Shown: positions 806 to 16,478 of the stretch, in pieces
Layout of the letters: each line of letters opens with the position of its first letter
Numbering within the stretch: position 1 is the stretch's first letter
IMG/VR virus record: IMGVR_UViG_2802429235_000005
Coordinates: 1-16,478 of that record
Length of the DNA stretch: 16,478 bases
Source: a virus
Lineage: Duplodnaviria > Heunggongvirae > Uroviricota > Caudoviricetes
Reading direction: 5' to 3' (one strand)
Notes under the pieces: model-generated
The model's database searches: none
The model's input: the letters and a program-made list of their open reading frames with translations, nothing else
Told to the model about the DNA's origin: nothing
Translations under genes and position numbers: made by a program

Positions 806-1261
806 TTATTGCTGGTATTGCCAACTGCTGACTAAAGCGTACAAGTGGTTTGGAGAATAGCGCCAGCTTTCCTTCAGTTGCAGAAATTCAGCACAAAATT
901 CACTGCAAAACAGGCGATCGCGCTGTTCTTTATTACCGGTAATAATTCCTAATGCTCCGCGCCAGTCATATTTCTTGCCATCATGTTTACGGAAAAAAGT
1001 TTCCACATCCTGAAGGCTGGCCTGGAGCGGCAGCATATCCCACTTATCCGCTGGCAATGGCATTATCTTTCCGCGTACACCGCGATCGCGCAGTGATGCA
1101 GAGTAACAAAGGTAACTCTTTTCACCATGCGCCACGGCTAATTCACAGTGGGAATAACTACCGTGTGTGATTTTACGGGTAAGCCAGTCAGCCAGTCGGG
1201 CAATACCACGGTGCTCTGTTCGGCCCTTATAACAAGCGAGCCAGACAGTGGTTTTACTCAT
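806..1261 (-). CDS. Hypothetical cargo protein; possible permuted NlpC/P60-type (YaeF/YiiX-like) Cys/His hydrolase
   Basis: 151-aa ORF whose ATG (1261-1259) overlaps the TGA of the upstream fibre chaperone (ATGA coupling). Motifs 'GSYSHCELAV' (S-H) and 'LFCSEFCAEF' (C-S-E) occur in the His-then-Cys order seen in permuted papain-fold amidases. Family assignment is by eye only. Confidence 0.5.
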   Translation of the reverse strand: MSKTTVWLACYKGRTEHRGIARLADWLTRKITHGSYSHCELAVAHGEKSYLCYSASLRDRGVRGKIMPLPADKWDMLPLQASLQDVETFFRKHDGKKYDWRGALGIITGNKEQRDRLFCSEFCAEFLQLKESWRYSPNHLYALVSSWQYQQ

Positions 1262-1965
1262 GGTTGCCAGCCTGTGGAGTAATCGTAGTCGAGCACCGCC
1301 TGAATATCGTCCAGAGCTTCCACCGCCGCGATATGACGCTGGGCGTTGGCGAACAGGCGCATATCGTGATCCATTGTTACCGATTCAAACTGAGCGGCGA
1401 TTTCGTTGGTTAACTCAATCAGACCGTTATTTTTAGTTTTCCACATTAAACCTGGAAGGATTTTTTTCTCCGCTCCCATTTTAGTGAGCGAGAGCTGTTG
1501 GATACGGCTATTTGTATCACTGTGGAAATGATGGTTGTTGATGATGATGTAATCGGTTGTGATGGCATCGCGTTGATTTTTGATTGCAGAGTATTTCGCC
1601 TCTTTAGCATCAGTTATGGATGGTTGCCATTTTTCACCATCCCAACGTTCAAAAGAACCTGTTGGGGAAATGATGGTGACAGTTTCAGGTAATTGGCCCA
1701 ATTCTTGAGTAATAAGCTGGCTACCATCAACTTTGTTATAAACAGTTTGCCCGCGATGATCTTCAATGAGCTCCCATTTTTCATTCACCCAAACAGGAGT
1801 AAAACCTGAAACCTTTTCGGGTGGTGAATTTAATGTGCAATGATTTGGCAAACCTGTATTAGGTGCAATGTATGCATCAGACTCACCGATATATTCTTGG
1901 GTGTCTTGTGAAAAGTTATAAACAGTCAGTATTTGAGCTTCATCGGAAAATGTAAAAGTATTCAT
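1258..1965 (-). CDS. Tail fibre assembly chaperone (P2 gpG / Mu gpU functional analogue)
   Basis: 235-aa ORF immediately downstream of the tail fibre gene with ATGA overlap (fibre stop 1964-1962, ATG 1965-1963). Position and size are typical for a fibre chaperone. Sequence looks more AT-rich than the baseplate genes. Confidence 0.6.
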
Positions 1966-3542
1966 GCTAGCCTCACAATATAATTGAATGCGATATTTTT
2001 AACGGTGTTTTCGGTATTGCCGGTATTATTAATGGTTATAGAGTGGTTATGGGCCCCAAGTGCAATTGAATGTGAATGGGTGCCGAGAGTAACAGTGTGC
2101 GAATGGGAACCAATTGTAATACTATGAGCGTGTGATGGAACATTAATAGCCAAAGATGATCCGGTACCAGGGCCATATGATGTCCAGTCGCCTTGGCCCT
2201 CTGGTGAAGATGTCCCTGTTCTTACTGTTGCAGTTGCCGAGCCTGAGCCAGATGAACTTGTTTTTTTATTACCATAGTTAAATGCTGATGTAGTTTTAGT
2301 ACCCAAGTCTGTTAAAACTGTGGTTTTCGTCCCTAAATCAGTATTCGAAATACTACCCGTATGGTTGTGCGATTTAACCCCATCCAGTTCAGTAGATAAT
2401 ATATTACGCCCACTGCTGGGTTTCCCTTTAATTATCCATCCACGCATATCAGGAATAACGCCAGATGGATATGCAATTGCCAGTTTGGGATATGAGGCTT
2501 TATTAAATGTCTGACCTGTCATCAGGGCGTAGCCAGAAGGTACAGAATCAGACGGCCAGGGAATAGGCATCCCTACAGGACAGCTTTCCGCAGCAATAGC
2601 CTTATCCATCGCTGCCTTAACCGCATTTGGTGTTGCAGCTTCCGTCGTACTGGTGCTGTTGGTCGCATTATTAAGCTTCACGACCCCTTTTTGTGTCAGC
2701 GTACTGTCGGGGATACCTGTTATTTGCCCCCAGGCATGGGTATGGCTGGCAGGTGCCGCAGCATTGGCCTTATCCATTGCGGCCTTAACCGCACTTGGCG
2801 TTGCAGCTTCCGCCGTACTGGTGCTATTTGTCGTGTTGTTAAGTTTAACGATCCCTTTCTGCGTCAGCGTACCGTCAGGGATACCAGTAATCTGATTCCA
2901 GGCATGAGTATGACTAGTGGCGGCTTTACTATTTGCCAGGTCATATGCCGCTTTTACCGCTTTTGGCGTGGCCGCTTTGGTTTCATCATCGCTATTGGTC
3001 GCATTACTCAGCAGCGTAAAACCTTTCTGCGTCAGCGTCGCATCAGGATGATTCCGTGATTGTTGATGTTCTTTCAGCGTTTCATCGACATATTCTCTGG
3101 TTGCTATAACGACTGAAGGGTCGATCAAAAGCGTCACCGCGTCAGCATTGGTCACTTCCATAACTGCGCGAATAACAATTTGCTTACTGGCACCCGCAGG
3201 TAATAGCGGTTTATAGGTTTCCGGAAATTTGCCAATAGCAACTAGTGTGCCGTCAGCATCCAGTAGCCCAACCTCGCGGACGTACCAGCCACCTACTTGT
3301 TCAGGAATAATCGTCTCTGCGATAACCCAGGCTGGATTATCAGGCGCAATTTTTAAGGTATTTAGTTGCCCACGCCAGACTTCATGCACAACTTTGGTTT
3401 GACTTTCTGTCGGCTCGACATAATGACCATTGCCATCGCCGACCACCATAGTTTGTAGGCGGATCTGTTTTTGCTCCGCCAGCGCAGAGGCAATTTTTGA
3501 TTTGCCTGCGGTGGTTAATATTGTAAAAAATTCACTTGCCAT
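1962..3542 (-). CDS. Tail fibre protein (P2 gpH-like N-terminal anchor, central tandem repeats, C-terminal HxH-rich tip)
   Basis: 526 aa. N-terminus '[37 protein letters not shown]...EVWRGQL' resembles the conserved P2 gpH-type fibre N-terminus. Three ~56-aa tandem repeats ('TLTQKG..L.NATNS...AATP.AVKAA.D.A'). C-terminal '[35 protein letters not shown]'. Confidence 0.9.
2583..3044 (-). repeat. In-frame tandem repeats (about 168 nt, 2.75 copies) inside the tail fibre gene
   Basis: Protein residues 167-320 form three consecutive copies of the same motif. The same periodicity shows up in the antisense plus-strand ORF 2653-2895 ('[14 protein letters not shown] ... [15 protein letters not shown]'). 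Confidence 0.85.
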
Positions 3543-3544
3543 AC

Positions 3545-4261
3545 TTACTCCGGGTATACAGACATAATTTCGGTACTCCAGTATCCTGTGCCGACATGAA
3601 TCGGTTGGGATTGTGTAATGCGATCAGGTTGATACGGAAAGAGATTTATGTATTCCTCAACACAGTAACCTGTCGCTAAAAATAGTGTCGATGACTGCCA
3701 AATACTCTCCGCAATAGGGGGTAATACAGTAATAACCTCCCCACCCTGGATTGCGCTGCCAATAACTGGCATTTGACTTTGGTTAATAAGCCAGATGGTA
3801 ATGCTTTCAAGTTTTGAACGAACATTTTTATATTCGTGAATTAATGCGATAAGTGCATTAAATTCATCTTCATTTAATCCTTTTTCCTCTAGTGTAATAT
3901 CAACCTTAAAAAAATAAGCCTTCCCCCCATATTCAAACCATTCTGAAATAGTTCCTGGTAGCGAAAGTATTTCCAGCACCCGCCGTACCGCCCAAATCGT
4001 TCCTTTATATTTATGCAGCTCAATGGCTTGCTTAATTAACTCGCGCTTCTCCCGTTCATCAGTGGTAAATAACCAACCTTCCAGCCCCTGAACGTGAAAT
4101 TGTTCTGCAAGCGTAGGCAAAGCCGAAGCATCAACCAGGTCTACCAGATAAACCATCAACGCCGTCAGATCGAGTTGGGCAAAACGCTCGGCAGCGATAT
4201 TTGCCAGAGTTGAAAAACGCTCATCGCTGGCAAGCGGCGGTGGCGGCAGCAATTTATCCAT
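3545..4261 (-). CDS. Baseplate protein, P2 gpI-like (Mu gp48 position)
   Basis: Sits between the gpJ-like and fibre genes. Internal '[26 protein letters not shown]' block and C-terminal '...GGEVITVLP' match the gpI pattern. ORF track start 4276 is TTG; ATG at 4261 has a GGAG 6 nt upstream, so 4261 is preferred. Stop TAA 3547-3545. Confidence 0.7.
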
Positions 4262-5369
4262 CGCTGACTCCGGCAATCGTGACGTCTATCGCGGTGCATT
4301 CCGCCCACTCATGCGCCTGCAAAATACGTTTTGTAGGCATATTCAGCGCAACGTCATAAACACCATCGACTTGTAACACTTTGATTATCTGGTTTGGCAC
4401 AATGTCCTGTCCCAGATGTGTTTGGCGCTGTTGCGTCCAGAGGCTAATCGCTTTATGCGCCTCAGCCAGCGTTGTTTCCTGATCGGCGGTGGTAAACAGC
4501 GTGAGCTGCGCACGGATCTCATACGGCACCCTAACGGCGCATTTCGCACTTACTTTGTCGGTCAGCGGACGTTTTTTCTCCTTGCTAACCTCCAGTTCAA
4601 TTTGCGCGAGCAGTTCCACGCCCGGCAGACCATTCAGCGTTAGCGGGTAGATCTCCACGCAGCCTTCTGGTAATCCTTCGTCCGGCCCCAGTACCGCGAC
4701 GTCAATAATCGACTGGCTTACGGAAAGCGTATGAAAGCGGTAGGCACCATAGCTGCCCGCATTGCTGAAACTTTCCGGCGCCAGTTGGATCCGCTGGCGT
4801 AGTGCGTCATCGCTCTCTTCACCGCAGCCGCCGGTTGAGGCCGTCAGGTTGGTCACGCTGATATCGTAATAACCAATCCTGTCAACAAGGGCGCTAATCT
4901 GTGCAGGCTGCCAGCCATTGCCCGCTTCGCCTGTTGCCAGACTGGTGGCGGGAACGGCGATATGCAAACTTCCCGCCGGAATCAGAACATCTTCATCGGT
5001 AGCAAACATCACGCTGTCAGAGGCGCTGGCACGTGTTCCTTGTGGAATTAGAATGTTATTTCGATTCTTACTGGCTACCGAAAACTGCAACGTGGTTTTT
5101 GCCGGTTGTGCAGGTAAGCGGTGAACGCCCACCAGCTCACCTAAATAATCCAGCATTGGCGCGCGGGAATACGCGACCAGATTCTGTTTCGCCGCTTCCT
5201 GAATGGCGATGCGTACAAGGTTTTCACGATAGGCAAAAAGGTCAATCAGCAACCGCTCGGCCTGTGCCGGGTAGAGCTTTTTGCCGCTGGCATCTTCATA
5301 CTGCGCAATCATCTCGCTGGTAATTTGCGCAGGATCGCGGTCAATAAAATCGGGTTCGGCTATCGCCAT
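4254..5369 (-). CDS. Baseplate wedge protein, P2 gpJ-like (Baseplate_J family)
   Basis: 371 aa. ATG 5369 preceded by GGAGGTG. Overlaps the gpW end by 10 nt and the gpI start by 8 nt. Conserved gene order W-J-I. Confidence 0.8.
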   Translation of the reverse strand: MAIAEPDFIDRDPAQITSEMIAQYEDASGKKLYPAQAERLLIDLFAYRENLVRIAIQEAAKQNLVAYSRAPMLDYLGELVGVHRLPAQPAKTTLQFSVASKNRNNILIPQGTRASASDSVMFATDEDVLIPAGSLHIAVPATSLATGEAGNGWQPAQISALVDRIGYYDISVTNLTASTGGCGEESDDALRQRIQLAPESFSNAGSYGAYRFHTLSVSQSIIDVAVLGPDEGLPEGCVEIYPLTLNGLPGVELLAQIELEVSKEKKRPLTDKVSAKCAVRVPYEIRAQLTLFTTADQETTLAEAHKAISLWTQQRQTHLGQDIVPNQIIKVLQVDGVYDVALNMPTKRILQAHEWAECTAIDVTIAGVSDG

Positions 5370-5719
5370 AACACCTCCGTTGAGTTGATTACGCCGTCAG
5401 CGGCGCGCCATTGCACACGTAACGTCAGATGTTCCCCGTCGATTACCGGTGTCACCTTCAGCAACCGGCAGCGCGGTTCCCACTGGCGGATGGCCTCTAC
5501 CGACTCCCTTACCACATGCGGAATCGCCCGCTCGATGGGATAATCGATGTAGTGCCACAAGTTGCTGCCAAACAGCGGTCTGTGGGGATCACTGCCGCGC
5601 GGTGTGCGCAGAATGATGTGTATTGCCTGGTGAATATCATCCAGTCCGCAGACGTATTCTTCAGGCCGCTGCAAGGCTGGTTGCCAGTGCAGCGTAGAGG
5701 GGCGTGTTGTCGTGTTCAT
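5360..5719 (-). CDS. Baseplate protein, P2 gpW / T4 gp25-like
   Basis: 119-aa ORF directly upstream of the gpJ-like gene. Size and the 'LFGSNLWHYIDYP' region fit the gpW/gp25 family. Confidence 0.75.
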   Translation of the reverse strand: MNTTTRPSTLHWQPALQRPEEYVCGLDDIHQAIHIILRTPRGSDPHRPLFGSNLWHYIDYPIERAIPHVVRESVEAIRQWEPRCRLLKVTPVIDGEHLTLRVQWRAADGVINSTEVLWR

Positions 5720-5780
5720 GAGGGTATTTTCGCCCTGAACAGGCGGCGGGGATATTAAAGCGATTTAAAAAACTGATTGA

Positions 5781-5812
5781 TTAAAAAGAGAAAACCCGCC
5801 ATCAGGCGGGTT
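5781..5812 (-). terminator. Intrinsic terminator-like hairpin plus U-tract between the gpV-like and gpW-like genes
   Basis: Minus-strand RNA reads TGA-cguuu-AACCCGCC-ugau-GGCGGGUU-UUCUCUUUUUAA: 8-bp GC-rich stem (plus-strand 5793-5800/5805-5812), 4-nt loop, then a U-rich run. Confidence 0.55.
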
Positions 5813-5817
5813 AAACG

Positions 5818-6519
5818 TCAGTGTGAATGGTGGTTGGAGTTGCCACCGCTGTCCTGCAATGTGCCGCTGGCCTGAACGTTACCAATCACATTAACATTGC
5901 CAGTTATCGTGGCGGCGTTGCCGATGCCTCCACTTCCTGCCATGCCACCAAGCCAGGTGAGTTTTTTCATCACTGTGACGTTGCCGGTAAAGGTGCTCAT
6001 GGGCGCATCTACCGTCACTGCTGCCGCTTTAACATCGACCTTACTGGCTTCAATGCTGACATCGGTGGCTTTCACATCAACAGTGTCGGAAGTCACGGTG
6101 ACGTGTTGGGCTTTAACCTCAACGTTGGGCGATGTCAGGCTGGTACGGTCAATAACCTCAATCACGATTTTTTCGATGCCACCATTAATCGTAAGCTGGT
6201 GGGTGCTGCGGTCATATTCAAACGCTGCGCCATCAGAAAACTGGACATAGCGTTTGTCGCGCGATGCTACTGGCGCGGTATCTACCGTTGAATATACTGC
6301 GCCCAGCACCACGCCATCTTCACCGTTATCATCCAGCAGAACTTCCACCTGTTCGCCCATATCCGGTAGCCAGTAATCCTTATTGTCCTGAGAATTGCGC
6401 TGCAGCACCGCAAGCCAGTTACTCTTCAGATTGTCACACTCTGGTAGCGTGACCCGCACCCGAACGCTGGTTTCGTCAATATCGCTGATAATCCCCGTTT
6501 GCCGGGTTACTCCTTTCAT
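5818..6519 (-). CDS. Baseplate hub/spike protein, P2 gpV-like
   Basis: 233 aa. 'DYWLPDMGEQVEVLL' and 'QFSDGAAFEYD' match gpV-type motifs. Followed by V/T-rich beta-helix-like periodic repeats and a His-rich C-terminal tip 'NSNHHSH'. AGGAGG upstream of ATG 6519. Confidence 0.8.
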   Translation of the reverse strand: MKGVTRQTGIISDIDETSVRVRVTLPECDNLKSNWLAVLQRNSQDNKDYWLPDMGEQVEVLLDDNGEDGVVLGAVYSTVDTAPVASRDKRYVQFSDGAAFEYDRSTHQLTINGGIEKIVIEVIDRTSLTSPNVEVKAQHVTVTSDTVDVKATDVSIEASKVDVKAAAVTVDAPMSTFTGNVTVMKKLTWLGGMAGSGGIGNAATITGNVNVIGNVQASGTLQDSGGNSNHHSH

Positions 6520-6528
6520 ATTGCCTCC

Positions 6529-7569
6529 TTACTGGCTGGTCGCTGGCCCGCGTGAAACGTCGATTTCAGTGGTATAGCCGCTGCGCACAAAACTGTGAGT
6601 AGATTTATCAATCAGCCACTGACCGGAAAGCACACCAAAATCGGTTAGCTCGATTTTATTGCCTGCCGTCAGTTCCGGGCAGCCCATCATCCTGAGCGTT
6701 CCGGTTTGTTGATATTCGTTGTGGCTGTCGAGCGCGGCGTTGGCCTTTGCCTGCGCCGCGCCAACGTCCGGCGCCCGACTGTTCAGTTTCAGCGTGTCGG
6801 CACTGGTGCCGACTCCACGGGCAGACGGCTTTTGCTGGCTGTCGTGAGTGTAGATAACCAGTTCTTTTTTCTTACTATTTTGATGCTGTACGGTGGCGTT
6901 TTTGTAGATGCGGTTAATGGTATCTTTGAAGGTGAAATGCGAAACGTCTTTGCGGTCGATCTTTTTCACCGGCGCCAGGCAGCGCAGCGTGGGTAAATGC
7001 GAAAAAATCAGCTCTTTGGTGGTCACCTTTACCGCATAGCCATATTCGCTGGCCAGGCGCTTGAGAAATCCGACATCGGTTTCGCCGTACTGTGTCACCC
7101 GGTCAATCGTCAGCGGCTCGATTTTGCCCACCAGCGTCAGGCCGTGAGTTTGCGCGATACGGCTGGCGATGGCTGAAAGCGTTGTCTCTTCAAAGCCCTG
7201 ACTGTTACGGGTGCGCAGCGCCTGATTGACGGAAGTGGCGATGCCATCAATATTTACCGTGGAAGGTGGTGCTGAAATGTCAATTTTATCAATGATATAT
7301 TGACCACAATCGAGCAGTTTTTCCCCCTGATAACCTATGTGCAGCGCCAGCGTATCGCCTTTGCCGGGATACCACTCTTTTATCCAGCGTCCATCGGTGT
7401 CATCCAGTGTGATCGCGATGGTATCCGACTCGTTTTTAATACTGTCCTGGTAACTGATGCTGGTGACATAAGGCGTGATGTCATAAGTGATATCTTTATG
7501 CCCATACCACAGGGTAAAAATGGGCGCGAGCGTGGCAAAGACGCCGCCAGTTACGCTTATCTCAGCCAT
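6529..7569 (-). CDS. Tail protein, P2 gpD-like (late control D family)
   Basis: 346-aa ORF between the gpX-like and gpV-like genes. Start ATG 7569 overlaps the gpX-like end by 13 nt. Size and position fit gpD / Mu P. Confidence 0.75.
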   Translation of the reverse strand: MAEISVTGGVFATLAPIFTLWYGHKDITYDITPYVTSISYQDSIKNESDTIAITLDDTDGRWIKEWYPGKGDTLALHIGYQGEKLLDCGQYIIDKIDISAPPSTVNIDGIATSVNQALRTRNSQGFEETTLSAIASRIAQTHGLTLVGKIEPLTIDRVTQYGETDVGFLKRLASEYGYAVKVTTKELIFSHLPTLRCLAPVKKIDRKDVSHFTFKDTINRIYKNATVQHQNSKKKELVIYTHDSQQKPSARGVGTSADTLKLNSRAPDVGAAQAKANAALDSHNEYQQTGTLRMMGCPELTAGNKIELTDFGVLSGQWLIDKSTHSFVRSGYTTEIDVSRGPATSQ

Positions 7570-7766
7570 GGTGGGATCTCCGATACGGTCTTGTTGACGG
7601 TAATGACCGGAATAATGAGCTGAATACCGGCAGGCAGTACCGGATAAATGGCGACATGTGGATTGGCGGCGATAATGCGTTCATAAGCCAGTGCATCACC
7701 GTAGTAATGCCATGCCAGGTTATCCCAGCGTTCGCCGTCGGTGGTGATATGTTCAAGGTATCGCAT
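7557..7766 (-). CDS. Tail protein X, P2 gpX-like (LysM-like)
   Basis: 69 aa. 'TTDGERWDNLAWHYYGDALAYERIIAANPHV' follows the gpX pattern (G-D-x-LD ... YYG ... ANP). TAATG overlap with the upstream gene. Confidence 0.7.
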   Translation of the reverse strand: MRYLEHITTDGERWDNLAWHYYGDALAYERIIAANPHVAIYPVLPAGIQLIIPVITVNKTVSEIPPWLR

Positions 7767-8719
7767 TACCAGCTCCTCGTAATGGTCGCGGCAGCGAGCT
7801 GAGTCACTGCGGGAGTGGTTTGCTGTACCGTTGTACGCGCCTGCTCAACCAACGTTGTGGCTTTATCGAAAGTTGCTTCGGCGATGGCGCTGGTGATGCT
7901 GCCAAACAGTTCTTGTGCATGGTCAACCAGTGTCCCGGCGTCTTCGGCACAGTCGCGGATGCCCGGCATGTTACCCAGCAATGCTTTAATCTGCGCCGAC
8001 AACGCTTTTGGTAATCCTGCCAGCGTTTGCAGATCCATCGGCTGTTTAAACAGGGTTTCGATGGCATCAATAGTCTTTTTCAACGACTTAATTATCTTTT
8101 CACACTTTTCTTTTAACGCTTTGGCCTCTTTAATCAGTGCTTTGACCTTTGCCACTGTTTTTTTAATATCTTCAATGGATTGCGCCAGTTCATCGATCAT
8201 CTCTTTGGCTTTGCGCATACCTTCTTCAATGGCGTTCAATATCTGATCCAACCAGGACTCCACCTTGTCCGGAAAATCGCTCGCCTTTTCGTCAATATTA
8301 GGCTCCTGGGTGGTAATCGCCGGGGGCAGGAGTGGGTTTTTCGGATCGCCGGTATACTCCTGGAGCGACATTGTTCCGCTTTGGGCAATGACATTGCCCC
8401 AGGGATCGGTGTGCTGGTGAGTGGCGGTTAACTCTGTAATTACAAACCAGCCGCGATAATCACCGTTGCCAAACACCAGCGCCATTGCTTTGTGGGCAAG
8501 CATGGCTTCACGCAGTCGATTCAGCTCTGTTGTGGGTTGGCAAAACTGGCTGTGCAGGGAAAATTCCAGCGCCAGCATGTCCAGCTTATCGCCAATAAAC
8601 TGCACGCCAGGTTTGCCTTCAATACGGGCATGTGTGGCGTAATCCACGCCCATTGTGCTTTTAAAGCCGTCCCAGAATGTGACAACTTTAAATTCAATCT
8701 CACCTAAAACGGCATACAT
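7766..8719 (-). CDS. Tail protein, P2 gpU / Mu N (DNA-circularisation protein N-domain)-like, with coiled-coil-rich C-terminal half
   Basis: 317-aa ORF immediately after the tape-measure gene (TGATG overlap), the conserved position of gpU/N. The C-terminal half is heptad-like and K/E/A-rich ('KAKEMIDELAQSIEDIKKTVAKVKALIKEAKALKEKCEKIIKSLKK'). Confidence 0.5.
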   Translation of the reverse strand: MYAVLGEIEFKVVTFWDGFKSTMGVDYATHARIEGKPGVQFIGDKLDMLALEFSLHSQFCQPTTELNRLREAMLAHKAMALVFGNGDYRGWFVITELTATHQHTDPWGNVIAQSGTMSLQEYTGDPKNPLLPPAITTQEPNIDEKASDFPDKVESWLDQILNAIEEGMRKAKEMIDELAQSIEDIKKTVAKVKALIKEAKALKEKCEKIIKSLKKTIDAIETLFKQPMDLQTLAGLPKALSAQIKALLGNMPGIRDCAEDAGTLVDHAQELFGSITSAIAEATFDKATTLVEQARTTVQQTTPAVTQLAAATITRSW

Positions 8720-11079
8720 CAGGCATACCCCCGGCGCTGTTGCTGCGCCATTACGTCGTTAATCATTCTTTCCAGTTCGCGTTTACTCATCGTCAATACG
8801 TTCTGAATGTCTTTAGTGGTGTTTTGTCCGTTACCCTGCACGGTAATTTGTGGCGAAAAATTCACCTGGACTTTTCCTGGGGAACGGGAGGGTAGCGTCG
8901 CCGGTTTGGTTACGGATTTACCTGATAAAGAGGCCGACGCGGGTTTTGCCACTGGCGCCGATGACGGCGTTGTCGTTTTGCTGGATGGCGCGAGTTGTTT
9001 GCCCACTGGAGGCGTTAAAAGCGCACCGGCAACGCCTGGAACAACGGTCGCGGGGGAGACTGATGCGGTATTAGTCGTGCCTGTAACAGTCGCAGCCGAT
9101 GCTTCTGTGCCGATCCCCATTGTGGCTTTTAGCCAGTCTGGCATGGCGTTTTTGACCTGATCAATAATGCCTTTCAGAGCGGGGAAAGCATTCATTATGC
9201 CGTCGGCCAGGCTAGCCAGTATATTGCTGCCGAACTCGCTAAAACTCGCAGGCATCTCAACACCAAACCAATTCATCACACCGGAAAAGGCGCTGTAGAA
9301 CAGCCCCAGTGGCGACCAGTCGAGAATCAACCGGCTAATACCTGCAATGCCACCGTCAAAGGCCGTGGTAATACGTTTCCAGATGGCGGAAAAGAACCTG
9401 GTGATAGGTTCCCAGTTGCGATAAATCAGATAAGCCGCGCCCGCAATCGCAGTGATGACCAGACCAATGGGATTCATCAGTAGCACCCGGCCTAGTGAGA
9501 GAACGGTTCGACCAACCAGTTTCAATGCTCCGATCAGGCCACGACCAAGCAGTTGCGTTAGCCATTTTGCGCCGCCACCCAATGACTTAACCGCCAATAG
9601 CACCTTACTCGCTGCGCCTCCGGGCGCCAGACTTGCCCTGACTTTCAGGAAGATATCGACCAGACGAATAAACGGCGAGGCGATGAAGTTCGCGCCCAGC
9701 TTTAAAACATTCAGCGCGCCGTTAAACAGCCAAATCGCCCCGACGATTTTCGCAATGTTTTGCACCAGCGCCGGATGTTCGCGTAGCCAGGCGCTGAACT
9801 GGCGAATAACCGGCGCAAGGCTTTGCGCCAGCTCGCCAATCGCCGGCATAAGTTGTAAGCCAATGCTGAGCCATAAATCATTTAACGCCAGTTGTAACGC
9901 TTTAGTCTGTTCAATGGGCGAAGCCATTTGCGCAGAAAAGTCGGCATCAATCAGATTCTTGCTGGTGGCTTGCATGGCAGAGGCTTTTAGCTGGCGATAC
10001 TCTTCCATGTTCGCCAGCATAGGGGCCAGGAATTCCACCGTTTGTGCATCGCCGAACATTTCGTCCAGATTAAACTGCGTCACCATCGATTGCAGCGCAG
10101 TGCTGCGGGCAGATAAATCTTCAATCTGCATGGTGCGTTTGAAGGTATCGAGGATCGCCGGATTCATCTTCTCAAGCTGCATTTGCACGATATGAGTCAT
10201 GGCTTCGCTAACACCCATACCGTTTTGCTGATGCTCAAGCAGAGAACCTTGCAGATCGACGCCCTGGCTGGCGAACCAGCTATCGGTTTTTTTCGAAAAG
10301 GTGGTTTGCAGAAAATGGTCGAAATTCTCCGCCGCTGTACTGGCGCTGGCACCGTTTTTCATGGCGATCTGCATGGTGGCGGTCAGTTCAGCCATACCTT
10401 CCAGACCCTGAGTGCCGGTTTTACCTGCAAATTTCTCTATCCACTGCGTTTGTTCGGCAATGGCAGGCCCACCGCTTTTGGTCACGCTGTACATCATGTT
10501 TTGCGCGGCGTTGAAATTTTCCGGGGCAATATTCAGTCGATCATGAGTCGCGAGCGCGGCTTTCGCCCATGTTTCGGCGCTGTCGCGCGTGGCGGTGGCG
10601 GCTTTGGCGATCTCCGGCATATAGCGGTTGAGATCCTGCAAGGACGATACATTGCCTTCAACTAAGGTCAGAGCGGCGGACTGTAACGTGGTCTGCTGCT
10701 GGTTAAAATCCATACTCCAGTCGCGCAGATTCAGGCTGAGCGTCTCGCGAGTGGCATCACTCATCCCACCTTTGGCCGCCATATTGACCATATTGTCCTG
10801 AAACTCATACGGTAACTTCCAGTCGGGGGCTTCAACATTGAATACTTTGCTAAATTGCCCGGCAAATGTTTGGGTTTTCTCCATCAGATTAGCGCGGCTG
10901 CGGCTATTTTCCTCCAGGCGGAGAGCGGAATCGGCAAGTCGCTGCGTTAGTTTGATAACTGTCGCTTGCTGAGTAGAGAGAGTTAACAATGTTCTGGCGT
11001 TGAGTGAGCCGTAACGGGCTATTGCCTGCGTCAACGTCTCATTACGCGCCTGAAGCTGGGTAATAATATCGTTGGCCAA
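8719..11079 (-). CDS. Tail tape measure protein
   Basis: 786 aa, the largest ORF, between chaperone and U-like genes. Internal hydrophobic segments and a P/S/T/A-rich low-complexity region near the C-terminus. Apparent TTG start at 11079 preceded by AAAGAGAAA; an in-frame TAA lies 5 codons upstream, so the ORF cannot extend further 5'. Confidence 0.85.
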   Translation of the reverse strand: MANDIITQLQARNETLTQAIARYGSLNARTLLTLSTQQATVIKLTQRLADSALRLEENSRSRANLMEKTQTFAGQFSKVFNVEAPDWKLPYEFQDNMVNMAAKGGMSDATRETLSLNLRDWSMDFNQQQTTLQSAALTLVEGNVSSLQDLNRYMPEIAKAATATRDSAETWAKAALATHDRLNIAPENFNAAQNMMYSVTKSGGPAIAEQTQWIEKFAGKTGTQGLEGMAELTATMQIAMKNGASASTAAENFDHFLQTTFSKKTDSWFASQGVDLQGSLLEHQQNGMGVSEAMTHIVQMQLEKMNPAILDTFKRTMQIEDLSARSTALQSMVTQFNLDEMFGDAQTVEFLAPMLANMEEYRQLKASAMQATSKNLIDADFSAQMASPIEQTKALQLALNDLWLSIGLQLMPAIGELAQSLAPVIRQFSAWLREHPALVQNIAKIVGAIWLFNGALNVLKLGANFIASPFIRLVDIFLKVRASLAPGGAASKVLLAVKSLGGGAKWLTQLLGRGLIGALKLVGRTVLSLGRVLLMNPIGLVITAIAGAAYLIYRNWEPITRFFSAIWKRITTAFDGGIAGISRLILDWSPLGLFYSAFSGVMNWFGVEMPASFSEFGSNILASLADGIMNAFPALKGIIDQVKNAMPDWLKATMGIGTEASAATVTGTTNTASVSPATVVPGVAGALLTPPVGKQLAPSSKTTTPSSAPVAKPASASLSGKSVTKPATLPSRSPGKVQVNFSPQITVQGNGQNTTKDIQNVLTMSKRELERMINDVMAQQQRRGYA

Positions 11080-11171
11080 AATTGTTTCTCTTTAAATATT
11101 GATAATGGCCCGCTGGTTATTTTTCTAAAAAAAAGGGGCAGGGAAGAAATAAACCTGACGGGCTTGGAAAA

Positions 11172-11194
11172 CTCGCAGACATCAGGTCTGCGAG
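11172..11194 (-). promoter_or_regulatory. 9-bp-stem hairpin in the chaperone / tape-measure intergenic region
   Basis: Plus strand ctcgcagac-atcag-gtctgcgag. On the minus strand it is followed by UUUUCC (weak U-tract). It contains the stop of a +1-frame ORF that overlaps the chaperone gene end. Confidence 0.35.
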
Positions 11195-11269
11195 TCATAT
11201 TCGATTTTTATTTGGGCGTTGGCTTCATCCAGCCAGTTGCTAAAGTCATCGACGGTAAGGGCGTCTATC

Positions 11270-11587
11270 TCACTGGGCGGAAAGCGAAACCATCTTGCCA
11301 GTAACGCCATCGCTTGCCATAACAGTGGCAGATTCTGTAGCCACGCTAAGCATGGATTGAAATCGTTTCTGCAATGCCTGGTAATCCAGCAAATCCATTT
11401 CAGCTAAATCTTCTGGCACCAGTCCGGTCATTGCAGCCATTAGCGGTTCATCCCATTCTTCTGGTTTTTCGCTGATCCGGCGCGCGTTGCGCATATCTTT
11501 TACTTTCAGGCGACGTAATTGCAGAGTGTTAATTACGTCTCCCGCCGCTGAAGTAAACGGGAACTGTAAGGTATAATGTTCTTTCAT
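11270..11587 (-). CDS. Tail assembly chaperone (P2 gpE-like position)
   Basis: 105-aa ORF between the tube and tape-measure genes. AGGA 7 nt upstream of ATG 11587. Position is the conserved chaperone slot; no canonical -1 slippery heptamer found. Confidence 0.5.
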   Translation of the reverse strand: MKEHYTLQFPFTSAAGDVINTLQLRRLKVKDMRNARRISEKPEEWDEPLMAAMTGLVPEDLAEMDLLDYQALQKRFQSMLSVATESATVMASDGVTGKMVSLSAQ

Positions 11588-11615
11588 TTTGTATCCTTAT
11601 TGGTCATGCGGAAAT

Positions 11616-11631
11616 CGGGGCCGTAGCCCCG
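11616..11631 (-). promoter_or_regulatory. GC hairpin between the tube and chaperone genes (possible attenuator)
   Basis: cggggc-cgta-gccccg, a 6-bp perfect GC stem with 4-nt loop, 7 nt after the tube stop and not followed by a strong U-tract. Confidence 0.4.
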
Positions 11632-11637
11632 AATAAC

Positions 11638-12162
11638 TTAGCCACCGATGTTATTGCGATAGGTACTTAATTGATCCACGCCGTTAACGCGGAAAATATT
11701 CGCCAGGTAATCCAGTTCCAGTAGTGTTTCACCATCGACCACCTGTTTAATATAGGTACAACCAAAGGCGCTGCTGAATTCCGGGTTTTCATTCTGTTTA
11801 AATGTTCCCAATGGATTCTTTTTAAACATAACAGTCAAATGAGTGACTAACGCTAATTGATTCGCTTTCCCCTGGGAGTTATAGCAATCAATACTGGAGC
11901 GGCACTGTAATGCTACCGCCTGCCACGGGTTTGCCGTTTTACGCATGACGTCCTGATAAAAGGAGTTCCATTTAATTTCCCCTTCCAGTTTATCGAAACC
12001 TGCCGGGAGTTCGATTTTGCCGACCATGCCCAGTGCTTTATGCTCCTGCATAATTAAACTGACATCCGGTAATTTAATTTCGGTTGCACGACCTAAAAGG
12101 TTATTACCATCGAGATAAATATTGGCATTGGTAATACGGTTAATTTGAATTTTTCCAGCCAT
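11638..12162 (-). CDS. Tail tube protein (P2 FII-like)
   Basis: 174 aa. N-terminal 'IYLDGNNLLGRATEIKLP' and C-terminal 'VDGETLLELDYLANIFRVNGVDQL' match the FII tube pattern. TAATG overlap with the sheath gene. Confidence 0.8.
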   Translation of the reverse strand: MAGKIQINRITNANIYLDGNNLLGRATEIKLPDVSLIMQEHKALGMVGKIELPAGFDKLEGEIKWNSFYQDVMRKTANPWQAVALQCRSSIDCYNSQGKANQLALVTHLTVMFKKNPLGTFKQNENPEFSSAFGCTYIKQVVDGETLLELDYLANIFRVNGVDQLSTYRNNIGG

Positions 12163-13586
12163 TAGCTATTGCTCTCCAGAGAGACTAAATATTCAGAGGT
12201 AATTTCAGTTTCAAACGTCAGACGTTCCAGCGGCGGTGGCGGGGTGAATTTATAGCTCAGCAATAAATGCCCGGCACTGAGTTCGGTCGGTGAATTTCGC
12301 GCCGGATCGTACCAGCACTCAAAGCCAAGCAGTGCGCCGTCGGCAATCAGCTTACGGCCCCAGGTATTTACCGACTCGGTCAGGGCATCAATTAGCGCCT
12401 GATTAATCGGCATATCGATATACTGCTGGCTGAAATAACGGATCGACTCGTTAATCACATCACCCGTGCGGCGAACGTTTTCAAAGTTACGCATATGGGT
12501 CACGGTTGGCCATGCCGCAGTGCGGTTGCCCCATAAACGCAGACCAGAGCCGTAACTATTGAAAACTGTGGTAATGCCGTTTTCGTTGAGCTGATTCACT
12601 TCACTTTGCGGGTCATCAACCATTGCGGAAAGTGAACGTTCGATACCGATAATGCCCTGAATTTCCTGGTTTGAGTTGCTCCACCAGAAACCTTTCTCCA
12701 GGTCTACTTTGGCACGCAGTCCGGCAGCGCGTGAAGAGAGCGGTTCGAGAACTTCCTGGTTGGTTGCGCCGTCATAAACTTTGACGTGCGGATAGCACAA
12801 ACGCGCACGGTCAGAACTGGTGTTGAAGTTGATTGCGCCTTTCGAGCCGCGACCAGCCAGCACCTGCTGGAATGTAGTACCGATTGGGGCGTCAATGTAG
12901 GCGATAGCACCGAGTTTTTCCGCCTGAGCAATCAGTTCGGTGGTGACCGATTTTTGCGTACAGAAAACGGGAGCAAGCAGGATTTTGGCGTAGAAACCAT
13001 ACAGGTTATAGGTATCCTGTAGCAGTTTCATCCCAGTGCGATCGCCTGCGGTATTAACGGCGCCAATAATATCGGCTGCGGTAACTTTTGTTGGATCGGC
13101 CCATGAGTAATAGGCACAAACTTTCGCTCCGGCAGGGATCTCAGTCTCTGCACGAGTGATTATTCCTGTTTGTTCATCAACATGAAACGCTGTGCTGCTA
13201 TACGTAGTGGCTGATGTTGAAGAGGGTTTCAGGACGACATTACGCACCGCACGATGAGCCAGTTTTGCCTGGTTGTTGGAATCAAAAGTGATACTCTCAT
13301 TGCTGATGCTGGAGCCATGTTTTGCCGGATCCAGTACGTTAATCACCACCACCGTACCGGCGCCGTGGTCATAAATCGCCTTCAGCGCCTGCGGGATAGT
13401 AAAGTTAGCCTGAGTCGAGCCAAACTGCGCGGCATCGCTTTCAGAAAGGCACAATGTTGGTTTGTTTACCGGACCGCATGGTGCACTACCGATTAAAGCG
13501 ATTACAGCGGATTTTACCGCTTTAACCGGGCGCGGACCGGTTTCAATTTCAATGGTTTCTACACCGTGCAGGTAATTAGCTGCCAT
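12162..13586 (-). CDS. Contractile tail sheath protein (P2 FI / Mu L-like)
   Basis: 474-aa ORF directly upstream of the tube gene. ATG at 13586 preceded by AGAGGAAA; the ORF-track start 13592 is a TTG two codons earlier. Confidence 0.85.
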   Translation of the reverse strand: MAANYLHGVETIEIETGPRPVKAVKSAVIALIGSAPCGPVNKPTLCLSESDAAQFGSTQANFTIPQALKAIYDHGAGTVVVINVLDPAKHGSSISNESITFDSNNQAKLAHRAVRNVVLKPSSTSATTYSSTAFHVDEQTGIITRAETEIPAGAKVCAYYSWADPTKVTAADIIGAVNTAGDRTGMKLLQDTYNLYGFYAKILLAPVFCTQKSVTTELIAQAEKLGAIAYIDAPIGTTFQQVLAGRGSKGAINFNTSSDRARLCYPHVKVYDGATNQEVLEPLSSRAAGLRAKVDLEKGFWWSNSNQEIQGIIGIERSLSAMVDDPQSEVNQLNENGITTVFNSYGSGLRLWGNRTAAWPTVTHMRNFENVRRTGDVINESIRYFSQQYIDMPINQALIDALTESVNTWGRKLIADGALLGFECWYDPARNSPTELSAGHLLLSYKFTPPPPLERLTFETEITSEYLVSLESNS

Positions 13587-13773
13587 GTACAATTTCCTCT
13601 CCGTTATTTTGTTCTTCCTGAGTGATGACAGGAGTCAGGTGATTGCGGGCAATCATGGTCATAACCCACTCGTTTTCTTCTGGCAGATCAATTTCACTGT
13701 TCGGCCACAATAAGATTTCTTGTCCGTCGGCAAGGGTGACGCCGCTTGCCGGGCCGTTGTAGATGTATTTCAT
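13576..13773 (-). CDS. Small conserved-position protein (Mu gp38-like slot), function unknown
   Basis: 65-aa ORF. ATGA overlap with the upstream gene and 11-nt overlap with the sheath start, so it is translationally coupled on both sides. Confidence 0.5.
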   Translation of the reverse strand: MKYIYNGPASGVTLADGQEILLWPNSEIDLPEENEWVMTMIARNHLTPVITQEEQNNGEEIVHGS

Positions 13774-14225
13774 TCAGTTTCCTCGTAATTAACTTCAGTA
13801 AGCAGGGTAAGGTCCGTGCTTTCCCGTTTTGCGATAAACAGCGATCTGGTCGCCATTTCCAGGATGTAGCGGCAGAAACCACCGCTCTCGCCTGCATTGA
13901 TTTCTGTTTCAAGCCAAAGAAGACGCTCGCAATCAGGAAGCTGGATCCCCCCCAATGCGCTGCGTATGCGATCCAGTGCGTTTAACGCGCCACAATTTTT
14001 GCCAACAATAACGGTGGCAGTTAAACGGAGCGTTTGCTGTTGCACGAGGGCATCACTGCTTTCAGGCATGGCAAATAGAGAACCGCTATAATTAATAATC
14101 ACTGTAACTTTCTGCGTCTGCGGAATATATTTATTGGCATCAACCGATGAAATAAATACGTCCATTTCGGGATTCTGTTCACGTAATCTGGTCACAACAG
14201 AATTAATTACAGATAAAATTTCCAT
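13770..14225 (-). CDS. Tail-associated protein (Mu gp37-like slot), possibly tail completion/terminator
   Basis: 151-aa ORF, first gene after the lysis-cassette terminator. AAGGAA 8 nt upstream of ATG 14225. Function inferred from position only. Confidence 0.5.
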   Translation of the reverse strand: MEILSVINSVVTRLREQNPEMDVFISSVDANKYIPQTQKVTVIINYSGSLFAMPESSDALVQQQTLRLTATVIVGKNCGALNALDRIRSALGGIQLPDCERLLWLETEINAGESGGFCRYILEMATRSLFIAKRESTDLTLLTEVNYEETE

Positions 14226-14330
14226 ATAGGGTGTTCCTTAATTACTGCTCACTTCGTTATCGTTGAAATGTATTCTGAAGCAGTGAAGGTGAAGAATCTT
14301 TTAATGTGATTTAGAGAAAAAATTGAATGG

Positions 14331-14366
14331 CTATAAAAATCCCCACACTTACGTAAAGGTGGGGAT
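14331..14366 (-). terminator. Intrinsic terminator after the lysis cassette
   Basis: Minus-strand RNA has stem AUCCCCAC / GUGGGGAU (plus-strand 14339-14346 / 14359-14366) with an internally palindromic loop, followed by UUUUUAU. Begins about 5 nt after the spanin-like stop. Confidence 0.6.
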
Positions 14367-14370
14367 GTAT

Positions 14371-14685
14371 TTAATAGCTGCCACGTTGTAATAGCTCTAT
14401 TTTGCTATATAAGGCATCCAGCTTTGCTTCTAATACTGCCTGGCCACGAAGATAATCTTCTCTGCGGACATAATGCAGCGGAAGCTCGGCACGAAATTCG
14501 AGAAATTCTCTTTCCAGTTTCGACCAGCTTGTTTCTGATTCCCGGCGCGCGTTTTCCAGAGATTCAAAACGCTCATTAAGTCTTTTTTCAATTTGCGCTA
14601 ACAGCAATTTTCCGGCAGCAAACATTAATCCAACGAAGGAAAGCATAAGGGAGATCACTTCCCAAAAATCGATACTGAGTTTCAT
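14371..14685 (-). CDS. Lysis accessory protein, Rz-like i-spanin candidate (N-terminal TM helix plus coiled coil)
   Basis: 104 aa. 'VISLMLSFVGLMFAAG' transmembrane segment followed by a charged heptad-rich region. Immediately downstream of the lysozyme gene; GAGGGG upstream of the ATG. Confidence 0.45.
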   Translation of the reverse strand: MKLSIDFWEVISLMLSFVGLMFAAGKLLLAQIEKRLNERFESLENARRESETSWSKLEREFLEFRAELPLHYVRREDYLRGQAVLEAKLDALYSKIELLQRGSY

Positions 14686-14697
14686 CGGCCCCTCTGA

Positions 14698-15303
14698 TTA
14701 GTGAAGACAGCTTGCCTGCCCCCAGAGTAAGTAGCGGGCGGCATGTTGATAGAGGATCATCTTCGGATAGTGACGATTTTCTCGCCAGTTTGCGGCACTA
14801 CGCCCGGCGTTGACGTGCTCAACATGACCAAACCAGATGGTGGCATCTAACCCTTTGGATGCGGCCAGTTTTTTATCCCGATTAACCCATCCCTGACCAC
14901 CGTTATAGGCGCTTAGGGTAAACGCCATACGCTGGCAGCCATTTTTCGCCGAGATGTTTTTCCACAAATGCTGGTCATATTGCACCAATGCGCGAATCGC
15001 CCAGGTTGGGTTATAGGGCTTGTTTTCACGTAGCTGTGGATACAACTGGCTTATCCATGTCGCTGTGGCAGGCATAAATTGCGCCATACCCTGTGCGCCG
15101 ACGGGGGAACGCGCCATTGGCTGCCAGGCTGATTCCTGGTGCAACTGCCCGGCGAAGTCTGCCACCGGGGCGTTCAGTCCCCAGACTTCTCGTGCAGTTC
15201 GAATCAGTTCGTTTCGCCATGCCAGAGATGCTCGCGGCGGTTCAGATGCGTTAAGCGGGAAGAACGCGAACAGAGTAATTAGCGCGAGAAATTTTACCTG
15301 CAT
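14698..15303 (-). CDS. Lytic transglycosylase (SLT family) with N-terminal signal sequence; endolysin candidate
   Basis: 'QESAWQPMARSPVGAQGMAQFMPATA' matches the SLT catalytic motif (E-S ... G-A-x-G-x-M-Q-x-M-P-x-T-A) and 'LSAYNGG' the AYNxG motif. N-terminus 'MQVKFLALITLFAFFPLNA/SE' from ATG 15303 (AGGA 7 nt upstream). The ORF-track 5' extension to 15402 is rejected. Confidence 0.8.
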   Translation of the reverse strand: MQVKFLALITLFAFFPLNASEPPRASLAWRNELIRTAREVWGLNAPVADFAGQLHQESAWQPMARSPVGAQGMAQFMPATATWISQLYPQLRENKPYNPTWAIRALVQYDQHLWKNISAKNGCQRMAFTLSAYNGGQGWVNRDKKLAASKGLDATIWFGHVEHVNAGRSAANWRENRHYPKMILYQHAARYLLWGQASCLH

Positions 15304-15305
15304 CA

Positions 15306-15593
15306 CTAAAGTCCTAACGCGACGGAAAGGCAGACGGCTGCAACGATGATAGCCCGACGAATCATTGCCGCCGCGCAGCATCGCGCCTCTTCCCAGGGGC
15401 AAAATGAGTCAGGCCGCGCCCAGGGAAACAGACTGCGATCGAGCCAGTATCCCAGCACAGCGGCGAGCGAAACCAGACTTAGTTTATAAATGACAACCGG
15501 GATCTGTGCGGAAGATGTACAGCCGATCGCGACAAACAGCGCGACGGAAGCGACCAGCCAGCCGGAAAGACGGGGAAAAGTGACTTTTTTCAT
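15306..15593 (-). CDS. Holin-like small membrane protein
   Basis: 95-aa ORF with AGGAG 7 nt upstream of ATG 15593. Two or three hydrophobic segments. Immediately precedes the lysozyme gene (stop TAG 15308-15306, lysozyme ATG 15303). Confidence 0.5.
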   Translation of the reverse strand: MKKVTFPRLSGWLVASVALFVAIGCTSSAQIPVVIYKLSLVSLAAVLGYWLDRSLFPWARPDSFCPWEEARCCAAAMIRRAIIVAAVCLSVALGL

Positions 15594-15889
15594 ACGATAT
15601 CTCCTGATAAGTGAGCGTTTAGTGTCGCCAGATCCCTCCAGTGAAGAATGAAAAAAGCTTTAATAAATAACTTTAAAAAATAGATCCTCTATAAATGAAC
15701 ATGCTTGCTAATAAATCCACCCATTAATAAAAGAGCAAAAGGTGTCCTGGAGAATAAGCGCGTCATTATGCAGGGAAAAGAGGATGGTGAATCGTAGGAA
15801 TAGCCCATAGTCATTTGATTTTTAAAGTTTGTTTAAGAAAGTCAGCGACTGTGAGGGAAACGATCTTTTTACACTACAGGTAAAAATAA

Positions 15890-15909
15890 TACTGTATGCA
15901 CATACAGTA
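15890..15909. promoter_or_regulatory. LexA (SOS) operator, near-consensus
   Basis: TACTGTATGCACATACAGTA: CTGT-N8-ACAG palindrome matching the enterobacterial consensus TACTGTATATATATACAGTA at about 17/20 positions. Located in the divergent control region. Confidence 0.7.
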
Positions 15910-15930
15910 TCGTGTAAAATGATACTCCAG

Positions 15931-15961
15931 TTGACAAGAAACATAACGCAAACAATATATT
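15931..15961 (+). promoter_or_regulatory. Candidate sigma-70 promoter directed toward the Mor-like gene
   Basis: Perfect -35 TTGACA (15931-15936) followed 17-19 bp later by an A/T-rich -10-like AATATA/TATATT (15954-15961). Gives a roughly 170-nt leader before ATG 16131. Confidence 0.35.
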
Positions 15962-16130
15962 TATTTTGTGAATTTATGACGTTCATTAATATTAAAAATT
16001 TATATTTTTGGTGATTGTTTATTTGTTTGTTGAATGTATTGAGTAGCAGTAATGACAACTGCTTAGCGTATATCCGTGGTTTTACACGCATCGGGTCTTA
16101 TACAGGATGCAAGATATATGGAGATGAAAA

Positions 16131-16478
16131 ATGATACGAAAATCAAAAGAGATGGCCCGGACACCGGAGATCATTAACGACCTGGCGTTTCATGCATCGC
16201 AAGTTCTGATTGAGAGCATCAATCTCGACAGTTCATCGGCGGAAAATGTGGGCTTTGCCATTGCCGACCGAATGATGCGTAACTGGGGTGGGCAAAGCAT
16301 TTATTTCCCGAAAGGGATCTCCGGACGGGCGTCGGAGCGTGACTACCAAATCTATAGCGAGTGCGATGGTCGCAACTACGCCGAATTAGCGAAGAAATAT
16401 AATCTGACGTTGCAATGGATTTATAAGATAGTGAAACGCGTACATGCGGAAAAGCAACAGCGCCGTAGTAATTCGTAA
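16131..16478 (+). CDS. Mor/C-family transcriptional activator (phage Mu middle/late activator family)
   Basis: 115 aa. 'NWGGQSIYFPKG' and C-terminal 'DGRNYAELAKKYNLTLQWIYKIVKR' (HTH) fit the Mor/C pattern. GGAG 7 nt upstream of the ATG. Divergent from the lysis/tail cluster. Confidence 0.65.
   Translation: MIRKSKEMARTPEIINDLAFHASQVLIESINLDSSSAENVGFAIADRMMRNWGGQSIYFPKGISGRASERDYQIYSECDGRNYAELAKKYNLTLQWIYKIVKRVHAEKQQRRSNS

Follow-up and report, generated by a model that had tools for sequence, protein, structure and literature searches.

A minus-strand tail cluster with a chaperone gene between the tube and tape-measure genes

The window, a term used below for the whole stretch of 16,478 nucleotides that was analysed, is, according to Pfam and profile matches, a tail and lysis cluster, with all tail genes on the minus strand. 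Domain and profile annotation of positions 806-16478 revealed no head genes. The activator of the Mor type is followed by a holin, an SLT transglycosylase, a Gp37-family gene, and the sheath, tube, chaperone and tape-measure genes, and 3' of the tape measure lie gpU-, X-, D-, V-, W-, J- and I-like baseplate genes, a tail fibre gene and a fibre assembly gene. The genes that delimit the region of interest are as follows.

16131-16478, plus strand: Mor-family activator, divergent from the tail genes
13592-12162, minus strand: sheath
11638-12162, minus strand: tail tube (PF04985, E 5e-56), adjoining the chaperone gene on its upstream side
11587-11270, minus strand: chaperone (PF10109)
11079-8719, minus strand: tape measure (PF10145, E 3e-10)

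The position of the chaperone gene, between those of the tube and the tape measure, is that of tail-chaperone frameshift pairs. A chromosomal cluster carried by 195 of the 5426 complete E. coli genomes shares 90-97% identity with the window over the junction region, and 76% identity was found with the Salmonella STM4210-4215 region. Matches to NCBIfam models were not obtained, and no sequence-related solved structures were found. Overall, the cluster resembles either a tailocin or a BcepMu-like prophage that is defective. Related viral contigs span just 13-17 kb. At the other end of the window, a gene for an RlaP-family nucleotidyltransferase (positions 1-792, plus strand; PF10127, E 1e-97) is found on the opposite strand, beyond the tail-fibre assembly gene and a 151-aa ORF (806-1261).

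The frame-0 chaperone product and the absence of a -1 signal

The frame-0 ORF of the chaperone gene (11587-11270, minus strand) encodes a short product of 105 aa, equivalent to gpE of phage P2, and ends with a TGA at 11272-11270. Its residues 5-80 match PF10109 (Phage_TAC_7) with an E value of 7.1e-19 and 68 bits versus a cut-off of 25, and the product also matches phrog_166, "tail protein", with an E value of 1e-33. On the comparative data described below, residues 1-76 of this short form are a conserved domain and residues 77-105 an unconstrained tail. Codons 78-105 of frame 0 (11270-11356) display visible selection only for staying open, and the sequence of this C-terminal tail seems to be dictated by the overlapping frame. 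In some relatives the tail of the short form ends five codons earlier.

As stated in the preliminary description of this DNA, the -1 frame is closed two codons beyond the chaperone stop, by a TAG at 11267-11265, and the gene contains no in-frame slippery heptamer of the type X_XXY_YYZ. XXXYYY runs are likewise absent from all frames of the gene, in which the longest homopolymer is an A5. A -1 frameshift was rejected on account of the missing heptamer and of the immediate closure of the -1 frame. The tail-chaperone gene pair of tailed phages is known to use -1, -2 or +1 shifts (PMC5009743), and a forward shift, a recognised option for tail chaperones, would be a variation on this familiar device and not a missing feature. 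The earlier view that the expected frameshift is lacking is thus right for the -1 direction but not overall, since the shift would run forward (+1) instead.

A conserved E'-like peptide in the +1 frame

The +1 frame is open on the minus strand from 11403 to a TGA at 11184-11182, with the peptide ...EIDALTVDDFSNWLDEANAQIKIEYDSQT, and it runs for 29 codons past the chaperone stop with the peptide that had been quoted for it. By itself this open stretch of 73 codons is weak evidence, being expected in ca. 3% of random sequence according to our estimate; the +1 ORF is considered to be more than a chance occurrence because it is conserved and has homologs, and not on account of its openness alone. 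The part of it that would be translated as an extension is the following.

11182-11358, minus strand: +1 coding region equivalent to E' of P2, 58 codons (NPCLAWLQNLPLLWQAMALLARWFRFPPSEIDALTVDDFSNWLDEANAQIKIEYDSQT) plus the TGA at 11184-11182

This region overlaps frame 0 across 11358-11270.

The best match of the +1 peptide of the window is PF06528 (P2 GpE), with an E value of 3e-4 and 20.6 bits, which is below the curated cut-off of 23. The same family is the top match in 7 of 10 lineages, one of which (L141) reaches 31.9 bits and lies over this 23-bit cut-off. A match with an E value of 1.6e-20 was also obtained to phrog_8286, a family of small phage ORFs to which no function is assigned. 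When the modelled fusion of the chaperone with the +1 peptide was compared with P2 gpE+E' using hhalign, 121 columns were aligned, covering P2 residues 4-137 of 142, with an E value of 7.9e-6 and a probability of 84%. These profile matches indicate that the +1 peptide is likely a homolog of P2 gpE' (PF06528).

The peptide is kept in all 27 close viral-contig loci and in 78 of the 80 loci of a profile scan, which mostly come from the same contigs as the set of 27; two exceptions among viral-contig loci correspond to one in-frame fusion and to one indel inside E'. It was also found in the Escherichia phage PhiKM, in Klebsiella KP12, in Ralstonia YO107_2, in the Pseudomonas phages Bise and Komp_PAO1_1, and in the Burkholderia phages BcepMu and phiE255, and it occurs in 17 of 17 high-GC loci. 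A scan of reference genomes, for which the peptide patterns were too strict, recovered 5 close loci. In total, conservation of the +1 frame extends to more than 100 related loci. The preliminary description had named this conservation as a test of its proposal; the comparison was run and, in close relatives, homologs do conserve the +1 ORF with no -1 ORF.

In current records the extension is either missing or annotated by itself. The NCBI pipeline annotates nothing between the chaperone and the tape measure in E. coli A37, and E' occurs as a stand-alone small ORF in phiE255 (gp16), in Komp (CDS0016), in BcepMu (gp42) and as phrog_8286. Among annotated proteins, full-length matches to a chaperone-E' fusion are limited to singletons with indels or deletions (P0001-P0004, P0042). 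Two of these, P0001 and P0002, are 134-aa in-frame fusions joined exactly at a C run (TESS joined to LLWQAM), and probably represent indel errors or mutant alleles. C6-C7 runs were observed in the dual-coding stretch of some lineages (L009, L010), ca. 30 nt 3' of the TTT codon discussed below. Finally, in one metagenomic relative (L077, IMGVR_UViG_3300002920_000058, around position 1500), the chaperone and E' occur in one frame (...DAFRAMLDTGDDLWRAAGLLARWFRFQPSEID...) with the site GCC_TTT_CGG, which points either to a locus that can do without the shift or to an indel error in the contig.

Selection changes frame at codon 76

Synonymous and nonsynonymous differences were counted per codon in both frames for 23 distinct junction sequences. 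The synonymous fractions given below derive from pairwise counts of substitutions and are therefore not phylogenetically independent.

Upstream of codon 76: 0.88 in frame 0, 0.11 in frame +1
Codon 77 to the internal ATG: 0.13 in frame 0, 0.48 in frame +1
Four codons L-W-Q-A before the internal ATG: 0.00 in frame 0, 1.00 in frame +1 (410 synonymous, 0 nonsynonymous)
Internal ATG to the frame-0 stop: 0.20 in frame 0, 0.73 in frame +1
Frame-0 stop to the E' stop: 0.07 in frame 0, 0.58 in frame +1

As read from these substitution patterns, codon 76 is shown to be the exact point at which purifying selection leaves frame 0 and acts on frame +1. The internal ATG that serves as a landmark in this list is the following.

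11308-11310, minus strand: ATG in the +1 frame, encoding a Met within the E' domain and not a start codon

This ATG raises the question of whether the +1 ORF is made separately, with no frameshift, as a product of 42 aa starting at 11310. Such an ORF (11182-11310) does appear in the ORF listing, its ATG is conserved within the enterobacterial group, and the stand-alone annotations of E'-like ORFs mentioned above would agree with this scheme. Nevertheless, the +1 codons before the ATG behave as coding sequence, as seen with the L-W-Q-A codons and with the Cys and Trp residues that are invariant farther upstream, and relatives from the PhiKM, Ralstonia, Bise and BcepMu groups have G, K, V or L in place of the Met, no start codon being conserved across lineages. 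Separate initiation is disfavoured because coding-type substitutions in the +1 frame precede the ATG and because the Met is missing in distant relatives. In addition, the ATG at 11310 has no well-spaced Shine-Dalgarno sequence, an AGG being merely 2 nt away, and a separate start would leave the invariant CGA_TTT_C described in the next section unexplained. We consequently regard separate initiation as very unlikely. A frame change within the chaperone gene is the reading that we retain: as in other tail-chaperone pairs, the 3' part of the first ORF is shared with a second one that has no start of its own and can be reached by a change of frame only.

Stop codons found in individual lineages further delimit the place of this change. 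In two loci (L039 and L044), +1-frame stops occur 3 codons upstream of a TTT codon, and in the Bise group the frame-0 stop occurs 9-10 codons downstream of it. The shift is thereby bracketed to 12 codons, in which TTTC are the sole nucleotides common to all lineages.

The candidate shift site CGA_UUU_C

The sequence at which the two frames would be joined is the following.

11359-11365, minus strand: proposed +1 shift site CGA_UUU_C, comprising Arg75, Phe76 and the first base of Gln77

Its position differs from that assumed in the preliminary description, which looked for a shift near the end of the chaperone gene: codon 76 is located 29 codons before the stop. It is also the single in-frame TTT_Y of the chaperone gene of the window.

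Codon usage at this site was compared across 73 distinct coding sequences of enterobacterial origin. Phe76 is encoded by TTT in 73/73, followed by a C, and Arg75 by CGA in 71/72. Elsewhere in the gene, Phe9 is encoded by TTC in 43 sequences and by TTT in 17, Phe11 by TTT in 25 and by TTC in 13, and the other Arg positions are mainly CGC or CGT. TTT_C is retained in the high-GC phages BcepMu, phiE255, Bise and Komp, with TCC_TTT_CGC, GCC_TTT_CGC, GTG_TTT_CGG and GCA_TTT_CAA as the sites of high-GC relatives, and this retention at 60-67% GC is observed although TTT represents only ca. 21% of the Phe codons in long ORFs there. Overall, TTT_C is invariant in more than 90 sequences. CGA is not retained outside the Enterobacterales, where GCA, TCC, GCC or GTG is found, and one Lelliottia locus has CGG. 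The near-invariant CGA of the enteric sequences suggests that the codon 5' of the UUU may play a helper role.

Features that usually stimulate +1 shifts were not seen at the site. The UUU is followed by CAA or CAG, and in other lineages by CGC, CGG or CUG, so that the next codon is not a stop and not evidently starved, and no Shine-Dalgarno-like element is apparent in the sequence upstream. Conserved RNA structure 3' of the UUU_C was not detected either: RNAalifold gave no covarying pair, the z-score of the window is -1.0 and the predicted fold varies between lineages. Because neither a downstream structure nor an upstream Shine-Dalgarno-like element was found, the shift probably has a low efficiency, which would fit a minor form of the chaperone.

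The spacer between E' and the tape measure

From the frame-0 stop to the TTG at 11079 there are 190 nt. The preliminary description had reported a gap of this length and had considered it to be untranslated; the length is correct, but the gap divides into 88 nt of E' coding sequence and a spacer of 102 nt (11181-11080). This region contains two predicted hairpins.

11170-11196, minus strand: hairpin 1, an 11-bp stem (9-bp core plus one A-U and one G-U pair) with the E' stop in its loop
11108-11163, minus strand: hairpin 2, a long imperfect stem with GCCCG...CGGGC at its base and the T8 run in its apical loop

The location of the +1 stop inside a hairpin was thus rightly noted before: the TGA lies in a 5-nt loop, and the 9-bp core pairs 11194-11186 with 11180-11172. 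Hairpin 1 is predicted for every one of the 15 aligned relatives; one of its pairs shows a compensatory exchange, from GC to AU in 5 sequences, several others change to or from G-U, and the hairpin folds in all 6 representatives. Hairpin 2 is present in the minimum-energy folds of the same number of representatives (6/6). For the whole spacer, z-scores were -3.65 in the window, -3.89 in one relative (L007) and about -1.4 to -2.6 in the others. In a terminator scan hairpin 1 failed, having a weak U tract, and hairpin 2 likewise has no terminator pattern; no Rfam family was detected in 10950-11650. The hairpin at the E' stop was considered as a frameshift stimulator and rejected, being located ca. 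165 nt downstream of the shift site; the hairpins are too distant downstream to have an effect on the shift.

The homopolymer reported earlier is indeed present, as a T8 on the minus strand at 11134-11127, and varies from T5 to T8 among relatives. As a slip site, whether ribosomal or transcriptional, it was rejected on account of its variable length and of its location after the E' stop. The T8 run and both hairpins are part of the spacer between E' and the tape measure and not of the shift.

The TTG start that had been proposed for the tape measure (11079-11077) is also retained, as no other standard start codon (ATG, GTG or TTG) is available once the in-frame TAA at 11094-11092 has been passed. 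It is preceded, 7 nt upstream, by a Shine-Dalgarno-like GAGA (11090-11087); together with TTTTGGCCAACGA it is invariant in close homologs, and the same start is used in the NCBI annotation of E. coli A37.

Where the group is represented by complete phages, E' and the tape measure are separated by a small antisense gene. It encodes a multi-pass membrane protein in one locus (L025:3378-3713, minus strand) and in phiE255 (gp17, L043:1972-2214), and a hypothetical protein in Bise (L041:1882-2172). The E'/tape-measure junction looks like an insertion spot for accessory genes, which in the window holds just the two hairpins.

Two predicted chaperone forms and the alternatives to a +1 slip

Taken together, the frame relations, the homology to gpE', the change of selection at codon 76 and the conservation of CGA_TTT_C constitute strong comparative evidence for a forward shift in the chaperone gene. 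From this evidence we consider it probable that the gene directs the synthesis of two proteins with a common N-terminus by means of a +1 slip at CGA_UUU_C, and we infer that the event is ribosomal and of the +1 rather than of the -2 type.

According to this scheme, the majority of ribosomes would read frame 0 through the TGA at 11272-11270 and produce the short form of 105 aa. A minority would move one base forward at CGA_UUU_C (11365-11359), where the peptidyl-tRNA-Phe would pass from UUU to the overlapping UUC with perfect re-pairing; as an alternative step, the CGA/UUU pair would be translocated by four bases. Reading would then resume at AAU (11358) in the +1 frame and continue until the TGA at 11184-11182. 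The predicted product is an E+E'-like fusion of 134 aa, ...LQKRF-NPCLAWLQNLPLLWQAMALLARWFRFPPSEIDAL..., in which KRF is joined to NPCLAW, and the tryptic peptide spanning this +1 junction would be FNPCLAWLQNLPLLWQAMALLAR. In the model for lambda and P2, the tape-measure protein is the partner of the short form, and the tube protein is brought in by the domain that only the long form has (PMC5009743). By analogy with G/GT of lambda and E/E+E' of P2, the abundant short form would here coat the tape-measure protein, recruitment of the tube protein would fall to the additional domain of the rare long form, and a fixed ratio of both forms would set up tail assembly.

The same frame could also be entered by a shift of the kind found in phage Mu, in which ribosomes would move back by two bases within codons 73-79 and the product would gain one extra residue at the junction. 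The Mu gp41 chaperone, for which a -2 frameshift was reportedly verified by Xu, Hendrix and Duda in 2004 (PMID 15469818), has the same frame relation, and its site, GG_GGG_CGA, also contains the CGA that is near-invariant in the group of the window. Re-pairing after a -2 move is however impossible here, since UUU would be placed on GAU, CGA on AAC and AAA on GAA, nothing is conserved across lineages two bases upstream of the site, and the Mu product has no detectable kinship with that of the window (hhalign probability 0.9%, E 0.064). A -2 shift is in our opinion very unlikely, and the +1 slip on UUU_C is the movement considered in what follows.

Decay was envisaged as well, given that the cluster is devoid of head genes and that the NCBI pipeline annotates nothing in the 190-nt interval: the +1 ORF would be the remnant of a defective prophage, with the short chaperone alone being made. 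Against this, purifying selection clearly acts on the +1 frame, and practically every copy of it is intact, those of complete phages among them, which makes such a situation highly improbable. Transcriptional slippage, whereby a base gained or lost by the RNA polymerase would join both parts in some mRNAs, is suggested by the nearby T8 and by the C6-C7 runs inside the overlap of some relatives, but is hardly credible, as the T8 is past the E' stop and not conserved, the C runs are lineage-specific, and slippage at the A5, the longest run of the gene, could not reach E' because the last +1-frame stop is downstream of it.

Implications of a probable +1 site in the chaperone gene

If the +1 slip is correct, its consequences would concern annotation first. 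The NCBI pipeline misses the extension and phage records split it off (phrog_8286, phiE255 gp16, BcepMu gp42 and gp43), so that, once the site is recognised, an essential protein of tail assembly could be annotated correctly across widespread phages and tail-only clusters. For studies of recoding, the locus would offer a natural +1 site that evolution has validated, that lacks an obvious stimulator and that has a conserved 5' CGA, and in the engineering of tailocins the ratio of short to long chaperone would need to be preserved.

More speculatively, and with a likelihood that we place below even, CGA_UUU_C, or more generally NNN_UUU_C, may act as a compact +1 signal that needs no stimulator, to which the enteric CGA, through its inosine-adenine wobble, would add the effect of an enhancer by making the frame less strictly maintained during translocation. 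Should this hold, the signal would serve contractile tails and tailocins throughout one lineage, that of the BcepMu-like phages of Burkholderia, Pseudomonas, Ralstonia and Enterobacterales, and would be among the very few natural bacterial +1 sites with neither a stop nor a starved codon, and one Phe codon in a single family would serve as pivot for -1 (P2) or +1 (this group).

The principle of a two-form chaperone made by frameshifting is already well known. The shift site of this lineage is apparently undescribed: no description of it in BcepMu-like tails was found in the literature searched, which extended neither to the first paper on BcepMu nor to Xu et al. 2004.

Comparison with known recoding systems

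The closest counterpart of the junction in terms of product is that of phage P2, whose gpE and gpE+E' were reportedly described by Christie et al. in 2002. The P2 genome (GenBank AF063097) and the window share the position of the gene between tube and tape measure and a two-domain product (PF10109 followed by PF06528); moreover, the P2 shift point, Phe84-Leu85, aligns within two residues of Phe76 of the window, with a UUU Phe codon in both. In P2, however, the shift is -1 and takes place on T_TTT_TTG, 7 codons before the stop of E, whereas in the window it would be +1 and take place 29 codons before the stop. A further difference is that E' of P2 overlaps the start of gene T, whereas that of the window is separated from the tape measure by the structured 102-nt spacer.

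Mu gp41 resembles the window by the frame of its extension (+1 being equivalent to -2), by its position in the operon and by the CGA of its site, but two tRNAs slip back on GG_GGG_CGA in Mu and the window has no such run. The resemblance with G/GT of lambda lies, by analogy, in two forms, the short one abundant and the long one rare, that share their N-terminus and are encoded just upstream of the tape measure; the direction of the shift differs, and lambda has a heptamer. The heptamer of lambda, G_GGA_AAG, is used for a -1 shift just before the stop by the Pasteurella phage AFS-2018a, whose chaperone belongs to the same Pfam family as that of the window.

For the site itself, the nearest parallels come from unrelated genes. 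UUU_Ynn is notably prone to +1 shifts in bacteria and is the site proposed for YopN-TyeA, and the cassette of influenza PA-X is UCC_UUU_CGU (PMC5009743). The argI error site, the Yersinia YopN-TyeA site and PA-X all have, like the window, a zero-frame UUU followed by a pyrimidine, on which tRNA-Phe can re-pair with UUC; PA-X in addition needs a rare A-site codon, whereas none is evident in the window.

In BcepMu (AY539836), gp41, gp42 and gp43 belong to the same family and have the same arrangement as in the window, gp42 being the +1-frame E' ORF. Its site, UCC_UUU_CGC, nearly copies the UCC_UUU_CGU of PA-X. In the GenBank record (L042 1510-2271), gp42 is labelled as the equivalent of lambda G and gp43 as the slippage product; contrary to these labels, the comparative data would join gp41 to gp42 at TCC_TTT_CGC. 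A single family would display three recoding signals, T_TTT_TTG in P2, G_GGA_AAG in AFS-2018a and UUU_C (+1) in the group described here, and the comparison of P2 with the window suggests that the end of the PF10109 domain is a pivot for shifts in both directions.
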